Assembly: GCA_017482385.1 (NCBI GenBank)
Contig: JAFUNI010000001.1
Span: forward strand, 2,788 to 66,787
DNA length: 64,000 bases
Source: Oscillospiraceae bacterium
GTDB taxonomy: Bacteria; Bacillota; Clostridia; Oscillospirales; Oscillospiraceae
Reading direction: 5' to 3'
Part shown: one piece after another, positions 7,686 to 39,818 of the stretch
Numbering within the stretch: the stretch's first letter is position 1
Layout: each line of letters starts with the position of its first letter
Made by a program: the position numbers and the translations under genes
Notes under the pieces: generated by a model
Told to the model about the DNA's origin: nothing
Seen by the model: only the letters and a program-made list of their open reading frames with translations
The model's database searches: none

Positions 7686-9179
7686 ATGGCAAAGTTTGTA
7701 CCGCAGCCGGAGCTGTCTCTCAATGACCAGATGCAGATCCGCCGCGAGAAGCTGGCTGATCTGCGCGCGGAAGGCCGTGACCCCTTTATCCAGACCAAGT
7801 TCGATTTCAACGCGGATTCCGCTGCCATCAAGGCTGACTATGAAAGCTACGAGGGCAAGAGTGTCCGTGTGGCCGGCCGTTTGATGAGCAAGCGGGGCCA
7901 GGGTAAGGTCATGTTCTGCGATATGCAGGACGCTACCGGCCGCATCCAGCTTTTCGTCAAGATCGACGAGCTGGGTGAGGAGGAGTACGCGCGCTTCAAG
8001 AAGTACGATATCGGCGATATCGTTGGCGTGGAAGGCGAAGTGTTCAAGACCAAGACCGAGGAGATCTCTGTCCGGGCAAAGAATGTTACGCTGCTTTCCA
8101 AGTCCCTGCTGCCCCTGCCCAACAAGTTCCACGGTCTGACTGACAAGGAAGCCCGTTTCCGTCAGCGCTATGTGGATCTGATGGTGAATCCTGAAGTGAA
8201 GAAGAACTTTGTGATCCGCTCCAAGTTCATCAAGCACCTGCGCAACTATCTGGACAACATGGGCTATATCGAAGTGGAGACCCCCGTGCTGAACACCATC
8301 GCCGGCGGCGCCGCCGCCCGGCCCTTCATCACCCACCACAACACCCTGGACATCGACATGTACATGCGTATTGCCACGGAGCTGCCCCTGAAGCGTCTGA
8401 TTGTCGGCGGCATGGACCGGGTGTATGAGATCGGCCGCATCTTCCGCAATGAGGGCATGGACCCCAAGCATAACCCCGAGTTCACCACTGTGGAGCTGTA
8501 CCAGGCCTACGCCGATTTCCACGATATGATGGACATCGCTGAGGGCGTTTACACCACCTTTGCCAAGGAAGTCCTGGGCACCTATGAGGTGGAGTGGATG
8601 GGTGAGAAGATCGACCTGACCCCCGGCTGGCCCCGCCTGACCATGGTGGAAGCCGTTAAGAAGTATGTGGGCGTCGACTTTGATGCCATCACCGACGACG
8701 CGGAGGCTGTGGCTGCCGCCAAGGCTGTGGGCGTCGAGCTGGCTGATGCCGCTGAGAAGACCTGGGGCAATGCCCTGTATGCCTGCTTCGACCAGAAGGT
8801 CGAGGAGCACCTGGTCCAGCCCACCTTCATCACCATGTATCCCGTCGAGGTGTCTCCTCTGACCAAGAAGTCTCCCGCCGATCCCCGGCTGACAGAGCGC
8901 TTTGAGTTCTTCATCAACCGCAGCGAAATGGGCAACGCCTACTCCGAGCTGAACGATCCCATCGACCAGCGGGAGCGCTTCATGAAGCAGGTGGAGCAGC
9001 GTGAGCGCGGCGATGACGAGACCGAGATGCTGGACGAGGATTTCCTGAACGCCCTGGAATACGGCATGCCCCCCACGGGCGGCATGGGCATGGGCATCGA
9101 TCGGGCCGTGATGCTCTTCACCGGCGCTGATTCGATCAGAGAGGTTATCCTGTTCCCCACAATGAAGCCGTTGGATTGA
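7686..9179 (+). CDS. lysS: lysyl-tRNA synthetase (class II)
   Basis: OB-fold GRLMSKRGQGK, motif 2 GRIFRNEGMDPKHNPEF, motif 3 GMPPTGGMGMGIDR, C-terminal VILFPTMKP. Confidence 0.98.
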   Translation: MAKFVPQPELSLNDQMQIRREKLADLRAEGRDPFIQTKFDFNADSAAIKADYESYEGKSVRVAGRLMSKRGQGKVMFCDMQDATGRIQLFVKIDELGEEEYARFKKYDIGDIVGVEGEVFKTKTEEISVRAKNVTLLSKSLLPLPNKFHGLTDKEARFRQRYVDLMVNPEVKKNFVIRSKFIKHLRNYLDNMGYIEVETPVLNTIAGGAAARPFITHHNTLDIDMYMRIATELPLKRLIVGGMDRVYEIGRIFRNEGMDPKHNPEFTTVELYQAYADFHDMMDIAEGVYTTFAKEVLGTYEVEWMGEKIDLTPGWPRLTMVEAVKKYVGVDFDAITDDAEAVAAAKAVGVELADAAEKTWGNALYACFDQKVEEHLVQPTFITMYPVEVSPLTKKSPADPRLTERFEFFINRSEMGNAYSELNDPIDQRERFMKQVEQRERGDDETEMLDEDFLNALEYGMPPTGGMGMGIDRAVMLFTGADSIREVILFPTMKPLD

Positions 9180-9323
9180 TTTACCCACAATAAAGCTAAA
9201 TAAAGCGCTTTTTAGGGAGAAATAAAAGGAGACTCTCCAAAAGACTCTCCAATCCGCGTCATTTTCTCTCCTATTAGGGGGCTGAAAATGTACAAATCCC
9301 TATTGCGTACCATAAGTACTTTC

Positions 9324-9365
9324 AAGAGGTCTGCGACTGTATAGTCGTGGACCTCTTATTTTTTT
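9324..9365 (+). terminator. intrinsic terminator downstream of lysS
   Basis: AAGAGGTCTGCGACT-gtat-AGTCGTGGACCTCTT (2 G-U pairs) then a T run. Confidence 0.85.
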
Positions 9366-9405
9366 GCCCTTTTTAGGGCGCTGAAGTGAATACTAGAGTG
9401 TAATG

Positions 9406-9437
9406 AAGCCCGCTGACTATGGTCGGCGGGCTTTTTT
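9406..9437 (+). terminator. second intrinsic terminator before the ICE operon
   Basis: AAGCCCGCTGAC-tatg-GTCGGCGGGCTT then TTTT. Confidence 0.85.
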
Positions 9438-9569
9438 CGCGCTTCGAAAAAATTTTTTAATTTTTTTCAAAATGGGTGTTTCGTTTTTGGGCCAAAACCG
9501 TGCGGTAGGTAAGTGTAGGGTTTATTCCTACATGAACATTGAAAACTGAATACCCATTCATCAGATACG

Positions 9570-9820
9570 TTCCTTGCATGAGGGAAACCTCAGCTGAACC
9601 TGTAAGTACGCCACGATCTCCACCTGGAGGGAGCGAGAACACTTATACAGAAGCAAACCGGATTGCCACCGGCGATGGCCATTACAAGTGCAAGGTATAA
9701 TGATACTTCTCTACGGAGCTGGCGGAGAACCCGGCAGAGGTGAGACTCCTATGGACCCAGATCGCAACTGGGCGTCTGATGACTTCCCGGTGCGCGGGGT
9801 TCGAGGAAAAATGGCGCACA
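9570..9820 (+). ncRNA. candidate structured leader RNA upstream of parA
   Basis: Long-range stem CCTTGCA 9572-9578/TGCAAGG 9689-9695 enclosing several hairpins; GNRA and T-loop-like hairpins; function unproven. Confidence 0.4.
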
Positions 9821-9869
9821 TCTACTTATCTGTTAAGGGTAAGAAAAAGCAAGGAAAGGAGAGAAAGCT

Positions 9870-10697
9870 TTGAACCAATGTAAGGTGATTGCTATCACCA
9901 ACCAAAAAGGTGGCGTGGGTAAAACTACAACGACCGTCAATCTTGGCGTAGGCTTGGCCAAAGAAGGCTATCGGGTCCTTTTAATTGACGCAGACCCTCA
10001 GGGCAGTTTGACAGTAAGCCTGGGCATTAAAGATCCTGATTCCTTAGACGAATCTCTGGCAACGGTTATGACGGCATCTATCGAGGATATACCGCTGTCA
10101 CCTGAGACGGGCATTATTCAACACAACGAGGGAGTTGATTTAATGCCATCGAACATCGAACTGTCTGGCATTGAAACCGGCTTGTTTAATACGATGAGTC
10201 GTGAATATGTTCTCCGGAATTATATCAACACGGTCAAGAACAATTACGATTATATTCTTATTGATTGCATGCCGTCCCTTGGCATGATGACTATCAATGC
10301 TCTTGTGGCAGCAGACAGCGTAATCATCCCATCTCAGCCGAATTTCTTATCGACCAAGGGTTTGAACTTGCTGCTTCGCTCCATTTCGAAGGTGAAGCGC
10401 AGTATCAATCCTGCGCTGCGGGTTGATGGTATCCTGCTAACGATGGTGGACAGCCGCACAAACAATGCAAAGGACATCATATCATCGCTTCGACAAACCG
10501 TCGGGCAGAATATTCGTGTATTTGAAACAGAAGTCCCTCGTTCAGTCCGTGCGGCAGAAAGTGCGCTGGCAGGTGTGAGTATCTTCACGCATGACAGGCA
10601 AAGCAAGGTCAGCATGGCCTATGAAAATCTGACAAAGGAGGTGTGCGAAGTTGGCAGGGAGACCCAAACTCGACCTGGGCCTGACTGGGTACGATGA
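9870..10697 (+). CDS. parA: ParA/Soj-family ATPase
   Basis: NQKGGVGKTTT deviant Walker A, LLIDADPQGSLT, ILIDCMPSLG; TTG start after GAAAGGAG. Confidence 0.93.
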   Translation: MNQCKVIAITNQKGGVGKTTTTVNLGVGLAKEGYRVLLIDADPQGSLTVSLGIKDPDSLDESLATVMTASIEDIPLSPETGIIQHNEGVDLMPSNIELSGIETGLFNTMSREYVLRNYINTVKNNYDYILIDCMPSLGMMTINALVAADSVIIPSQPNFLSTKGLNLLLRSISKVKRSINPALRVDGILLTMVDSRTNNAKDIISSLRQTVGQNIRVFETEVPRSVRAAESALAGVSIFTHDRQSKVSMAYENLTKEVCEVGRETQTRPGPDWVR

Positions 10698-11673: not shown

Positions 11674-11702
11674 TTGACGGAAAGATAGCGAGTCCGTATT
11701 CT
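11674..11702 (+). promoter_or_regulatory. candidate internal sigmaA promoter for the lipoprotein/pilus locus
   Basis: TTGACG, 17 bp, TATTCT; GGAGG RBS downstream. Confidence 0.5.
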
Positions 11703-12455: not shown

Positions 12456-12495
12456 AAAGCCTCTTGGTGTTAATCATCAAGGGGCTTTTTATTTT
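12456..12495 (+). terminator. intrinsic terminator inside the ICE
   Basis: AAAGCCTCTTGGTG-ttaat-CATCAAGGGGCTTT then TTATTTT. Confidence 0.8.
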
Positions 12496-12518: not shown

Positions 12519-15500
12519 TTGAACGTAATGAAGAAAACACTGGCACTTCTGTTGGTTCTTGTGATGGCAATCTCCTGCTTGCCTCTTGGGGCAGTAACAG
12601 CATTCGCAGCAGAGGTTGATGACACACAACCGCCTGCTGATGAAACGCAGCCTCCTACTGTTCCGGAAGAGGTGCCAGAGATTACCGAAGTAACAGAAGA
12701 AACGCAGCCGAGCACGACCGAGCTGGAAACACAGCCCACGGAACCTTTATCTGTGGATGAAACTCCTGCAGAAGAAACATCTGAGCCAACTGAAGCACCT
12801 CAGGAGGTTATGATGTTCTCAGCAAGTCCCGCCAGTGATGACGATGGCGGCAGCTCCGGTTCTGAAACCGGTGACGGTGGCGATGGCGGTGGCAACTCCG
12901 CTGGCGACGGTTCCAGCAACATGATTGCTGTGGGTGTCACAATGCAGATCGTGTACTACCGCTATGACCAATGCTACAACCGGTATAATTCCCACGGAAG
13001 TGTTATCAACTCCGTGCAGACCGGCAAAGCAATTCCTTGGAATGATACCGGAAAGGACCAGGGCACAACTGCAACAACGGTCTTTGACACTTACACGATC
13101 ACGCCTCATACCTTTTTCGCAAAGGCTCGTTGGCCTTCCTATCCCTATGTGTATCACTTTCCTTATGAGAACTTGAAGGACGATAAATGCACCTTCTCTT
13201 GGACCGGCTTTACGAACTTCTGGTTCAACTACAACAATCCCGGTGGTAAGGCGTCCACCTATCCCCGAATTGTCCGTAATGAAGAAGGTGGCAGCAAAGC
13301 CATTGAAGATTTCCTTGCCCGAATCATTCTTGGCAATGATTACGGCGCATGGGATAAGCTGGATGTTGCAGCCGGTGATACTGTGGCAACCGACTCCTCC
13401 CTGTTCGCAGAGGTGTTGAAGTATCTGGGTGCCAGCGATCTTGCCATTCAGAACTACTTGGATTCCTACTACGGCAAGCTGAGTGTTACCCAGGATGGCA
13501 ACGTGCTGATCCCGACCATCATTTGGTCCTATGTTGCTGCGGAAAACCTCAGTGGCACCAGCCGCATCTACACCATCGGTGACGTTGCCGCCAACGGCAG
13601 CAAAAACAAAAGCTGGCTTAGTACCGCCTACACCTCTGGATCTAACTGTAATACTGGCTTTGGCGACTGTACTTGGAAAAAGGGCAGTAGTGACACCATG
13701 ATCTGTAAGCTGATGCTTGGCGGTAAACACTATCCCGGACATGGTACTACGATCTGGACAGAGCAAGGTTCTTCCAATCTGTTTGGAACAGGCCTTGTCA
13801 ACCGAATCCAGACCGAAGTGGATTCCACAGCCGAGAACGGGACCAATACCTTCTACTACCTCAGAGGTTACTGGACCCCCTATGGCACCGGCACCGGCGA
13901 AGTTTCTTTGACTAAGACCAACACCGCAGGCACCGCTAATTTGGCAGGTGCAGAGTTCACTCTGTATCGTGATCCTGCGTGTACTACGCCCATTACCAGT
14001 GCAGATTACAAGTCTCTCAACACTTCCGATACCGGCTATGTCAATGTAAGCACCCGCAAGACCGATGCAAACGGCAAAGCTAACTGGACAGGCCTCTATA
14101 CCGGCGCGTATTTTTTGAAAGAAATCAAGGCTCCGGAAGGCTATAAGGTTAACATTGATGCCAGCGGTAATGTGGAAGTTACCGAAGTTTCCGTAGATAT
14201 TGGTGCTACTGCTGTGACCCTCACAAATGCGGAAAACTCCAAGCCTGTTTCTTTGAAGAAGTCCATCAATGCTTCCCAGACCTGCATTGATCAGATTAAG
14301 GACAATAGCCTTTATTCTCTGGCAGGTGCAGAGTACACCATTTCTCTCAATGGTAAAGTGGTAGAAACGCTTGTAACCGATGCCAACGGCAACGCAACAT
14401 CCACCAAGCAGTACAACATTGGTGATGTGCTGACCATCAAGGAAACCAAGGCTCCCAAGGGCTACAAGCTGGATACCAAGACCCACACTCACACGGTTAC
14501 TTCCAGTGAGAACCTGATCTCTGTATCCGACATCCCCATTTTTGACCCGCCTTTTGTTTTGACGAAGGTGGACAAGGATACCACCACTCCGCAGGGTGAT
14601 GGTTCCTTTACCGGCGCAGTCTTCAAGTGGGAATACTTCCCCAACAACGATTGGAGTGGCACACCCGCACGGGTTTGGTACTTTGCAACAGACAGCGCTG
14701 GCAGATGTGTGTATAGCAAGGATTACCTTGCATCCGGTTACACCAGTGATGCACTGTATGTATCTCCTGCCAATGTGCAGCAGCTTCCCCTTGGTACTGT
14801 GAAAATCACGGAAGTGAAGAACTCTTTGGGTTACACCGTGATCGCAAGTCCTCTGTACTGTACGATTGCAGAAGATGCTTCCAAGGCCAGCGGAGCAAAG
14901 CACATTTGGACGGACGAATCCAAGGCGATTCTGACCCAGATGGCTAATGGCGACTGGGGTGTTTACGAACCTATCGACATCAATCTGTTTGGTTCTGTAA
15001 GCATTGAGAAGCACGATGCCGTTACCGGACAGACCGCACAGGGCGAAGCTACCTTGGCAGGTGCCGTGTATGAAGTCATCAACAGCAGCACCAACCCTGT
15101 GGTAGTGAACGGCAAGACCTATGCTCCCGGTGAGGTCATCTGCAAGCTGACTACGGATGCAAAGGGCATCGCAAAGACCGGAAACATCTTCCCCGTCGGA
15201 CGGTACACCATCCGCGAATCCGCAGCTTCCCAAGGCTACTTGGTGAATAGCGAATGGCAGAAAACCTTTGCCGTCACCGCAGAGCAGAAAGACCACAACT
15301 TCACCTATGCCGATGGCACCGGATGCCCCGAAACGGTTATTGCTGGTAAAGTTCAGATCAGCAAGAAGATCGTGAATACCATTGATAACCTCTATGCTGC
15401 TGAAGTCGGTGCTAAGTTCTCCGTCACTGACAGTAAGGGCAACGTGGTGGATACCATCGTTACCGCAGAAAACGGCGTCGGTATTTCCAAGGATTTACCC

Positions 15501-16453: not shown

Positions 16454-16481
16454 AAGCCAGGGATGCCCCTGGCTTTTCTTT
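16454..16481 (+). terminator. intrinsic terminator between adhesin and pilin
   Basis: AAGCCAGGG-atgc-CCCTGGCTT then TTCTTT. Confidence 0.75.
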
Positions 16482-18790: not shown

Positions 18791-18823
18791 CCCCGGAGGG
18801 AGAATATCTTCCTCCGGGGTTTC
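18791..18823 (+). terminator. strong hairpin, terminator-like with a weak U tract
   Basis: CCCCGGAGGGAGA-ata-TCTTCCTCCGGGG then TTT. Confidence 0.55.
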
Positions 18824-19714: not shown

Positions 19715-20462
19715 AGGCGTAATCGCTTTTATTATGATCCTGCTGTTCTCCTGTGGCTTTTCCATCTTTGCTTATCCCTATATTCATAACTATGTTGTGG
19801 AAAAGGATATGCAGGAACAGGTACAGGACTTTTGGGATCAACTTGGTACAGATCCCACAACGCAGGATACTCTCCCCACAGAAGTACCCACTGCACCTAC
19901 AGAACCCACATTGCCACCCAGAGAGCATGAAGCACTTTGGGAAGATATGCTGGCTTATAACCGTCAGATTTGGGAAGAAAAGCAGGCCGGGCTATGTGAT
20001 CCTTGGTCCTATCAACAGCCTTCCTTTACCTTGGGCGAGTACGGACTGGAAGATGAAGTGTTCGGTGTGATTTCCATTCCAGCGCTGGATTTGGAAATGC
20101 CGCTGTATCTTGGTGCGACCTCCGCACACATGGCGAAGGGTGCTGCCCACCTGTCCCAGACCAGCCTGCCCATTGGCGGCATGAACACCAACTGCGTGAT
20201 TGCCGGTCACAGAGGGTACAACGGTGCTGCTTACTTCCGGTATGTAACGGAACTGAAACCCGGTGATGAAGTCATCATCACAAATCTCTGGGAAACCATG
20301 ACCTACGTGGTAACAGATACCAAGATCATCATGCCCAACGAAGTCGAACAGATATTGATCCAGGAAGGAAGGGATATGATCACGCTGCTTACTTGCCACC
20401 CCTACGCATCCGGCGGAAAGCAGCGTTACCTGGTCTTCTGTGACCGCGTACCAACTGAATAA
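19701..20462 (+). CDS. class C sortase 2
   Basis: GGAGGTG RBS, lid DPW, IAGHRG, TLLTCHPY...R; no C-terminal TM. Confidence 0.88.
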   Translation: MRVLKGVIAFIMILLFSCGFSIFAYPYIHNYVVEKDMQEQVQDFWDQLGTDPTTQDTLPTEVPTAPTEPTLPPREHEALWEDMLAYNRQIWEEKQAGLCDPWSYQQPSFTLGEYGLEDEVFGVISIPALDLEMPLYLGATSAHMAKGAAHLSQTSLPIGGMNTNCVIAGHRGYNGAAYFRYVTELKPGDEVIITNLWETMTYVVTDTKIIMPNEVEQILIQEGRDMITLLTCHPYASGGKQRYLVFCDRVPTE

Positions 20463-22834: not shown

Positions 22835-23265
22835 AGGAAAACGCAGTCTGCTGCGGAGCGGCATTCAAGGATGGGATGGCCTGCTCTGTATGCGAGAGAC
22901 ACTATGTGCGGGATATGGATAAGAAATCCGCAATTTGCATGTATTTGAAGAATAGCCATACTGGGAAGAGCCGAGCAATCCACAGTCGGGATTTGCAGCG
23001 GCTCTTTTCTATTGACGGGAGAACGCTACGGCGTAAAATCAGCGCACTGCGGCAGGATGGATATCCCATCTGCAGCGATGAGACCGGTTATTACTACGCT
23101 GATAATCAAAAGGAGATCAACGATACTGTGTATCGGCTCAATGGCTTGGTGACGAAGGTCTCCAATGCCAGAACCGGCCTGTTGTTCGCATCTATTTTCC
23201 CTGCGCCGGTTAATGTGGAAATCACTGTTTGCGTAAATGGAGGTGACGTCTGTGGCAATGCCTGA
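22831..23265 (+). CDS. winged-HTH-like DNA-binding protein
   Basis: AIHSRDLQRLFSIDGRTLRRKISALRQDGYPICS..GYY resembles a wHTH; start uncertain. Confidence 0.55.
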   Translation: MKENAVCCGAAFKDGMACSVCERHYVRDMDKKSAICMYLKNSHTGKSRAIHSRDLQRLFSIDGRTLRRKISALRQDGYPICSDETGYYYADNQKEINDTVYRLNGLVTKVSNARTGLLFASIFPAPVNVEITVCVNGGDVCGNA

Positions 23266-25753: not shown

Positions 25754-25814
25754 TTTGCACATTTTTCTTTTTCTCATAACTCCCGTATAATAAAAGAAAA
25801 ACGGAGGTTGTATC

Positions 25815-26213: not shown

Positions 26214-26254
26214 AAAAAGATGCCGTGGAGAATAAAAACTTCACGGCATTTTTC
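26214..26254 (+). terminator. intrinsic (possibly bidirectional) terminator inside the ICE
   Basis: A-tract, ATGCCGTGGAG-N8-CTTCACGGCAT, then TTTT. Confidence 0.75.
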
Positions 26255-35128: not shown

Positions 35129-35474
35129 CTATACGGAATCTATGTTCTTTGGACTGTCGCTCAGACAGTTCATTTTTTCTGTCCTGGCGTTGGGCGTAGC
35201 AGTACTTCTGTACTTTGTTCTGAAGCCTTATCTGGGTACCGAAACTGTGAGCTGGGTGTGTATCCTGGGCGCGGCACCCTTTGCCGCAATGGGTTTCATC
35301 ACTTATCACGGCATGACTGCCGAACAGTTTCTGTGGGCGTGGTTGAGATCTGAATTCATCGAGCCTCGCTTTCTACGATCCGAGCCGGTCAACAACATCT
35401 ACTACGAGACCATGAAGGGTATCGTAGAATCCCACGAAAAGGAGGGCCATAAAGCGCATGATGAAAACAATTAA
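35097..35474 (+). CDS. PrgI-family (VirB3-like) protein
   Basis: MEVKINREIRNYTESMFFGLSLRQ; two TMs; directly before virB4. Confidence 0.88.
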   Translation: MEVKINREIRNYTESMFFGLSLRQFIFSVLALGVAVLLYFVLKPYLGTETVSWVCILGAAPFAAMGFITYHGMTAEQFLWAWLRSEFIEPRFLRSEPVNNIYYETMKGIVESHEKEGHKAHDENN

Positions 35475-39780: not shown

Positions 39781-39818
39781 CTCCCCATGGCAGTCTTGTG
39801 CTGTCATGGGGAGCTTTT
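39781..39818 (+). terminator. terminator ending the conjugation module
   Basis: CTCCCCATGGCAG-N7-CTGTCATGGGGAG then CTTTT. Confidence 0.85.

Follow-up and report, generated by a model that had tools for sequence, protein, structure and literature searches.

The closest described relative of the RNA considered here is canT, a 452-nt region of Tn916 that lies between orf8 and xis and is needed for expression of the conjugation genes (PMC11658703). canT acts in cis, in one orientation only and processively, on heterologous terminators (PMC11658703); it needs no other gene of the element (PMC11658703; Wirachman & Grossman, PLoS Genet 2024), and it works in a chromosomal lacZ reporter without transfer, provided that a promoter stands upstream (PMC11658703). 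Its authors stated that they could derive no meaningful structure and took the analysis of sequence and structure no further, and neither Rfam nor pemK is named in their paper (PMC11658703). Here we describe a leader RNA from an Oscillospiraceae bacterium, encoded in a stretch of 64,000 nucleotides (contig JAFUNI010000001.1, positions 2,788 to 66,787; hereafter the window, whose own positions are used throughout). The leader lies directly upstream of parA, at the head of a 30-kb conjugation array in a Gram-positive integrative conjugative element (ICE). It is homologous to canT in both sequence and structure, and this homology extends beyond the small core that Rfam recognises as the pemK motif. 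We consider that the leader probably serves the array that it heads as a processive antitermination RNA of the canT type.

The leader is a conserved multi-helix RNA fold of ~290 nt (9539-9819), as can be seen by comparison with its relatives. Amongst 80 loci collected from ParA relatives in species-representative genomes, about 26 carried a homologous leader, mostly in metagenome-assembled genomes of Oscillospiraceae, Lachnospiraceae and other Clostridia (alignment A1). Onto this alignment we projected 62 base pairs proposed for the window sequence, and took as controls the same pairs with their 3′ partners slid by 1-3 columns, as well as 500 shuffles. Across the 26 leaders, 89.4% of cells were paired, against 37-41% in the slid controls; both sides had changed in 44 of the 62 pairs, against 11-20; the covariation score was 0.448, against 0.06-0.11; and none of the 500 shuffles attained the values observed. 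A sequence-only reading of this DNA had proposed a multi-stem leader RNA and named covariation among homologues as a check on it, a check that these counts bear out. Furthermore, G-U cells outnumber A-C cells by 81 to 39, which favours the + strand.

Read from its 5′ end, the RNA consists of a 5′ box, a closing helix P1, a four-helix 5′ domain, a three-hairpin pemK core, the hairpin P5 and a 3′ domain with P6. The box UUGAAAACUGAAUA (9539-9552) is single-stranded, near-invariant in A1, and resembles a -35 promoter element but lies inside the RNA. P1, first found by RNAalifold, is a long-range helix that joins 9559-9566 to 9774-9781 (GUCUGAUG), with 99.5% of cells paired and both-side changes in five of its eight pairs; neither the box nor P1 had been mentioned in the sequence-only reading. 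The 5′ multi-stem domain (9572-9695), supported by covariation in the 26 leaders, contains P2 (CCTTGCA/TGCAAGG, 9572-9578 with 9689-9695), P3 (CTGTA.AGT/ACT..TACAG, 9600-9607 with 9641-9650, including a conserved CGC/GCG) and P4 (CCGG/CCGG, 9658-9661 with 9669-9672), all of which covary, together with P2a (9579-9583 with 9588-9592, GAAA loop) and a hairpin inside P3 (9618-9629). Beyond the core stands P5 (CCCAG-AUCGCAA-CUGGG, 9756-9772, pairing 9756-9760 with 9768-9772), which is 98% paired with both-side changes in five of five pairs. A further hairpin, P0 (GTAGG-GTTTATT-CCTAC, 9515-9531), lies directly 5′ of the box; a hairpin of unrelated sequence occupies this place in 17 of 22 homologues (z < -1.5) and is not a terminator, as no U run follows it.

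Much of this had been seen from the letters alone. The pairings now named P2, P3, P5 and P6 (GTGCGC/GCGCAC), along with the hairpin AGG-UGAGACU-CCU, which proved to be the third of the pemK motif, all show compensatory changes in the 26 leaders. Two others hold in part: TGAGG-GAAA-CCTCA is present in the window as P2a, but is optional, occurring in roughly half of the homologues (most of those with a GNRA loop), and CTCC/GGAG sits in the hairpin inside P3, whose length varies. Three of the ten proposed pairings had to be given up. TTCTC/GAGAA shows no compensatory change, is broken in a variant subgroup and clashes with the Rfam structure of pemK; GCCA/TGGC is uncompensated, and covariation backs CCGG/CCGG (P4) in its stead; and the TTCC/GGAA pseudoknot dissolves, since GAA covaries with TTC at 9800-9802 in a 3-bp hairpin that is paired in 100% of cells, and not with TTCC at 9784-9787. 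Folded as a single sequence, the leader reaches a z of -2.3 only, and the single-sequence minimum-free-energy fold, which misses P1, P5 and two of the pemK hairpins (b and c), was set aside. So was a pairing UACUUCU/AGAGGUG offered by RNAalifold inside the core, which has no compensatory change and clashes with the Rfam structure.

The core itself is a known motif. An Rfam scan of the whole window gave one match, the pemK RNA RF02913 at 9697-9754 on the + strand, which scores 69.1 bits (gathering score 34.8; E = 2e-10) and covers model positions 1-61 of 61; all other Rfam families found in 9150-9950 at E up to 10 scored far below their gathering scores. The Rfam scan that the sequence-only reading had called for thus uncovers a full-length member of a family that it had not recognised. 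The core, which includes AUAAUGAUACUU, shows the signature of RF02913, the conserved AUAAUGAUACUUC and then three adjacent hairpins within one enclosing pair, here U9708-A9751. These are hairpin a (9709-9711 with 9716-9718, UACG loop), hairpin b (9719-9725 with 9731-9737, AGAAC loop) and hairpin c (AGG/CCU, 9738-9740 with 9748-9750, UGAGACU loop), and they are 83-100% paired in the 26 homologues, with compensatory changes. Weinberg et al. (2017) are said to have described pemK as an orphan candidate cis-regulator motif in Firmicutes, and in the searchable literature we found benchmark uses of it but no function.

The link to canT emerges when this core is sought in Tn916. We took as canT sequence for the comparison the plasmid pCF10 (locus L081), which carries the Tn916-like Tn925, and mapped the published canT coordinates from the orf8 stop at L081 42207-42205. 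The pemK model matches L081 41922-41822, on the strand that runs from orf7 to xis, at 55 bits. The inactivating change S3 (ATA to TGC, nt 283 after the orf8 stop) falls on L081 41922-41920, that is, on pemK nucleotides 1-3; this site is also a TAT codon of the antisense 'orf5', in line with PMC11658703. An inactivating deletion of 162 nt (nt 229-390) takes out the entire pemK core, and the active fragment of 452 nt (nt 126-577) opens at L081 42079, the first base of the box that begins the window leader at 9539. canT also has compensated equivalents of P1, P2, P3, P3a, P4 and P5, which differ in sequence from those of the window (AATCGAA/TTCGATT for P1 and AGCTTT/AAAGCT for P5). The homology does not hinge on the core: R1, a covariance model built from the 5′ domain only (9537-9696, 151 positions, zero pemK nucleotides), finds canT at L081 42081-41924 with 49.8 bits and E = 6e-9, the next match in the 50 kb having E = 0.14, and its sole match in the window is the leader itself. 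We found no paper in the searchable literature that links pemK to canT or describes the extended structure.

Could the conserved structure act not as RNA, but as single-stranded DNA (ssDNA) whilst the element is being transferred by conjugation, serving either as a single-strand origin or as a promoter on ssDNA? In favour of this, the element is a conjugative one, mobile elements of this sort are known to carry structured ssDNA regions such as the sso of ICEBs1 and Frpo of F, and the 5′ box is -35-like. We nevertheless hold this to be highly improbable. The UACG tetraloop, the GAAA and GAGA tetraloops and the many G-U pairs are RNA-like, and immediately downstream come a Shine-Dalgarno sequence and a co-oriented gene. 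Moreover, canT is active in a chromosomal lacZ reporter without transfer, in one orientation and with a promoter required upstream, and the single-strand origin of Tn916, sso916, appears on its map as a separate element (PMC11658703).

The array, which is co-oriented with the RNA upstream of it, is broken by several terminators. By strict criteria, the stretch 9870-45000 contains six strong terminators on the + strand, as opposed to a single one on the - strand. A strong intrinsic terminator at 12456-12488 (+; 14-bp stem, UUAUUUU), separates the third gene from the adhesin gene, and at six homologous loci a terminator sits at the equivalent place, after the third gene and 2.6-2.9 kb past the start of parA. 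Another lies between the adhesin and pilin genes at 16454-16475 (+; 9-bp stem, six GC, then UUCUUUAUU). Both are textbook examples, whilst the two others that the sequence-only reading had picked out are weaker: a weak candidate at 18791-18819 (+; 9-bp GC stem, tail of UUU only) and a moderate one at 26220-26249 (+; 8-bp stem, 14-nt loop, then UUUUCUGUU). To these we add an intergenic terminator-like hairpin at 35150-35172 (+; then UUUUUUCUGU) and a strong hairpin past the last conjugation gene at 39781-39813 (+; 14 bp, eight GC), where the transcription unit probably ends. For the open reading frames (ORFs) at 16463 and 26220, the ATG starts as listed fall within the hairpins 16454-16475 and 26220-26249, and the true starts are probably further downstream.

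These hairpins might simply be the ends of separate transcription units, each block downstream having its own promoter and the leader having nothing to do with them. In favour of this view, intergenic gaps of 260-560 nt occur at 20462, 21702, 22834, 25753, 29082 and 34919, and promoter-like matches occur at 11674 and at 23012 (10/12), with a TATAAT at 25785. However, the terminator at 12456-12488 leaves 31 nt, including a Shine-Dalgarno sequence, before the next start codon at 12519, and the one at 16454-16475 is equally tight to its next gene; neither gap holds a promoter match, and promoter-like matches number 19, against 22.5 in shuffled sequence. Contigs from gut metatranscriptomes, which cover the leader, also cross both strong terminators, one spanning 12456-12488 and another 16454-16475. 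We therefore regard independent units as quite unlikely, and internal promoters would in any case be compatible with antitermination.

If the leader does act as canT does, we would picture the following. Transcription would start somewhere in 9440-9535, or, once the element has been excised, would come in over the element junction; the leader would fold as it is made and remain attached, in cis, to the RNA polymerase that transcribes it; and this polymerase would then pass the intrinsic terminators at 12456, 16454 and 35150 as well as the weaker pair at 18791 and 26220. The parA-parB genes, the adhesin, pilin and sortase genes, and the relaxase and type IV secretion system (T4SS) genes to ~39.8 kb would thereby be expressed as one unit, whilst spurious transcripts begun inside the array would lack the RNA and would be stopped.

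A number of observations weigh against this proposal. Antitermination by the window leader itself is argued from its homology to canT, and within canT the essential parts are unsettled: in the context of a 400-bp fragment, S3 made little difference, and the activity of canT fragments did not track predicted structure (PMC11658703). We saw no counterpart of P6 in the canT of Tn916. The two elements also differ in organisation. The canT of Tn916 is found at the right-hand end of the element, ahead of xis-int, is driven by Porf7, and comes to lie upstream of the conjugation genes only after circularisation; the window leader, in contrast, abuts parA and heads the array in the integrated state. 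The separation of the RNA and its promoter from the conjugation genes, by which Tn916 couples antitermination to excision, is absent here, and we see that coupling as a trait of the organisation of Tn916, not of the RNA itself. The metatranscriptome contigs are weak evidence, since they lack direction, could derive in part from DNA and belong partly to variant elements, and no transcription start could be called from undirected contigs of the public RNA runs. Lastly, promoter-like sites do occur in the gaps of the array (for example TTGACG-16-TAAAAT at 23012, or the TATAAT at 25785), and a sigma-70 promoter scan of 9100-10000 gave no match at ≥9/12.

The 3′ domain (9784-9819), which is peculiar to the parA-leader family, raises another possibility. 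It begins with a conserved UUCCC and contains P6 (9790-9795 with 9814-9819; 85% paired) and the 3-bp mini-hairpin P6a (9800-9802 with 9806-9808, GAG loop; 100% paired), and all pairs of both have changed on both sides. Just 3′ of P1, the conserved UUUCC(C/U) at 9784-9788 is complementary to GGAAA at 9853-9857 in the ribosome-binding region of parA, which makes it a possible anti-Shine-Dalgarno element, judged by complementarity. In seven leaders (L012, L014, L017, L019, L020, L024 and L042; A1 columns 445-490), a terminator-like hairpin with a U run stands between P6 and the Shine-Dalgarno sequence of parA; it could be a built-in test terminator or a mark of conditional control. One might thus see in the leader a local cis-regulator of parA-parB only, such as an attenuator, a riboswitch-like sensor or a translational switch in which UUUCC would mask the Shine-Dalgarno sequence, leaving the distant terminators unaffected; Rfam indeed files pemK under 'Cis-reg', and the restriction of P6 to parA leaders speaks the same way. 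Yet the window has no such terminator between leader and parA, and the same core and 5′ domain precede genes as unrelated as serine recombinases, pemK toxins and xis, which disfavours a gene-specific sensor. The sole member to have been tested is processive on heterologous terminators (PMC11658703). A purely local role is therefore unlikely in our estimation, and regulation through P6 would be compatible with antitermination. Indeed, no rival explains homology to a proven processive antiterminator as well as does the reading of the leader as a canT-type RNA.

How far does this RNA extend beyond parA? A pattern search for the pemK core gave 80 metagenome loci, and R1 matched 52 of these at E ≤ 0.01, always abutting the core. 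The 5′ box was present upstream in 44 of 73 metagenomic pemK cores, and in 34 of the 73 a significant long-range helix (p ≤ 0.05 against shuffles) of unrelated sequence joined a segment 90-230 nt upstream of the core to one 3-75 nt downstream. Amongst 35 downstream ORFs scanned, the classes that recurred were large serine recombinases (10), ParA (6), PemK toxins (4) and tyrosine integrases (2). These results lead us to see in the Rfam motif the conserved core of a larger RNA of mobile elements, with canT as its characterised representative: whereas the RF02913 model spans 61 nt, in the window, in canT and in 52 of the 80 sampled loci the motif sits inside an RNA of ~250-300 nt that adds a conserved 5′ domain and a closing helix. 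A BLAST of the leader against plasmids gave two partial matches only. The 57-nt core (9696-9757) reached contig depths of 440-520 in two gut metatranscriptomes, with ~8 in the flanks, and nearly identical cores must therefore be common to many expressed or abundant gut elements.

It is tempting to go further, and to speculate that pemK is no small cis-regulator, but the RNA-polymerase-engaging core of a very large superfamily of ~250-300-nt processive antiterminators, found in Tn916-like elements, serine-recombinase ICEs, parA-headed ICEs and the toxin-antitoxin modules of gut Firmicutes, and that in the parA branch P6 (in some members with the terminator) conditions antitermination. This broader proposal is tentative, and we rate it as possible rather than probable; were it true, the parA-headed branch would be a regulated checkpoint, and not a constitutive pass.

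Upstream, the leader region follows the lysyl-tRNA synthetase gene lysS (7686-9179), past which come two terminator hairpins on the + strand, at 9324-9357 and, with a U run, at 9402-9438. The second, just 5′ of an AT-rich block, possibly serves as an insulator against read-through from lysS; in the homologous locus L020, a terminator in the matching relative position likewise precedes a similar AT-rich block. In L020 we also observed, at 2408-2470, seven direct repeats GGGTTAA(C/A) between the rpsI terminator and the pre-leader terminator; they look like iterons or binding sites. In the window, the AT-rich stretch passes into a conserved block with the inverted repeat GTTTTTGG/CCAAAAC (9443-9515 in all, +), a candidate promoter or operator. 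Its part 9473-9515 recurs in L009, in L020 and in several contigs from metatranscriptomes, where the sequence on either side is different, and could represent a promoter or operator, or perhaps a feature of the element end. A weak promoter candidate, TCGAAA-18-CAAAAT at 9444-9473, was seen by eye only. TTGAAA at 9539 was rejected as the -35 of a leader promoter: the -10 place would hold the 5′ strand of P1, which covaries with 9774-9781, and the box also opens the active canT fragment under a foreign promoter.

At its other end, the leader gives way to the Shine-Dalgarno sequence (AAGGAGAG) and TTG start of parA (9856-9872, +; TTG at 9870). The sequence-only reading saw no credible coding sequence in the ~330 nt before parA, and rightly so: in 9530-9870 no frame stays open across the 26 homologues, and the small leader ORFs (53, 61 and 47 aa on +; 61 and 45 aa on -) were dismissed as genes, their frames being unconserved. 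Antisense open frames of 92-106 aa do occur at six leaders (L001, L059, L010, L031, L032 and L012) and are not family-wide; they recall the 'orf5' of Tn916, antisense to canT and itself disproved or irrelevant.

The array proper is co-oriented from parA onwards (9870-39774, +; ~30 kb). Adjacent to the leader are ParA, ParB and a 236-aa protein without a Pfam match; the array also encodes a SpaA-type adhesin, an LPXTG pilin, two sortases, ArdC, DUF3991-Toprim, YodL/DUF3846, a MobA/VirD2 relaxase, DUF3801, VirD4, VirB4 and a CHAP hydrolase. Defence-type cargo lies 3′ of the array (41871-62604): a Sel1-repeat protein, a Ser/Thr kinase, a type I restriction-modification system (HsdM/S/R), an AAA5+EVE protein with a McrBC-like partner, an ankyrin-repeat protein, a WYL regulator, an 880-aa fusion of PARG, ADP-ribosylglycohydrolase and NADAR, and a YgjP-like metallopeptidase. 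Neither the right end of the element nor an integrase was found within the window.

Comparison with other known systems helps to place this RNA. EAR of the B. subtilis eps operon and the put RNAs of phage HK022 are nascent RNAs that act in cis to give terminator-resistant polymerase without a dedicated protein, as we propose for the leader. The put RNAs, being two short stem-loops, differ from it in size and architecture; for EAR, which we take to stand in Rfam as the epsC motif, the Rfam scan of the leader at E up to 10 gave no match. Both are cited in the study of canT (PMC11658703). The conAn system of pLS20 is bipartite, its conAn2 RNA needing the protein ConAn1 (PF17362) for processivity (PMC8191782, Miguel-Arribas et al. 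2021), and it resembles our proposal in that a large RNA (~300 nt) brings about processive antitermination across a long conjugation operon, likewise Gram-positive and likewise containing terminators. No ConAn1 (PF17362) was found among 39 scanned ORFs of the window, ORFs below 150 aa falling outside the scan. pCF10 encodes PrgR, ConAn1-like by annotation, and in its own conjugation operon on the prgQ side the pemK model found nothing and R1 nothing significant; judged in this way through pCF10, with no conAn2 sequence compared directly, conAn2 appears to be a different RNA family from the leader. The sequence-only reading had offered conAn and EAR as precedents for leader-RNA antitermination; homology argues in favour of its idea, with canT as the relative in their place.

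A zipper-type attenuator, cATT of pLS20 (PMC13401043, NAR 2026), likewise heads a conjugation operon as a long and structured leader. In both cATT and our leader distant 5′ and 3′ segments pair, but in cATT this pairing is in competition with an intrinsic terminator that closely precedes the first gene, whereas the 3′ strand of P1 overlaps no terminator: there is no intrinsic terminator between 9539 and 9870, and the strand lies 90 nt before the Shine-Dalgarno sequence, followed by P6 and no U run.

The likeness to canT, on the other hand, runs through the whole RNA: the same 5′ box, P1, 5′ domain P2-P4, pemK core and P5, in an orientation that matches the conjugation genes of a Gram-positive ICE with internal intrinsic terminators. 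The primary sequences have largely diverged, except for the near-identical box and parts of the core; hairpin a of Tn916 carries a 40-nt insertion that the window core lacks, and the window has in addition P6/P6a and the GNRA hairpin P2a. As processive antitermination decides whether long conjugation operons are switched on, it bears upon the spread of resistance and defence cargo in gut Firmicutes. What the present locus adds is the link between pemK and canT and the extended, covariation-backed structure. canT was defined genetically in 2024; together with its relatives, this leader gives the class a structure of P1-P5, 5′ box and core, suggests what pemK, an orphan Rfam motif that is widespread and highly abundant in gut metatranscriptomes, is likely to do, and brings to light a second element organisation, in which the RNA stands directly at the head of the array.

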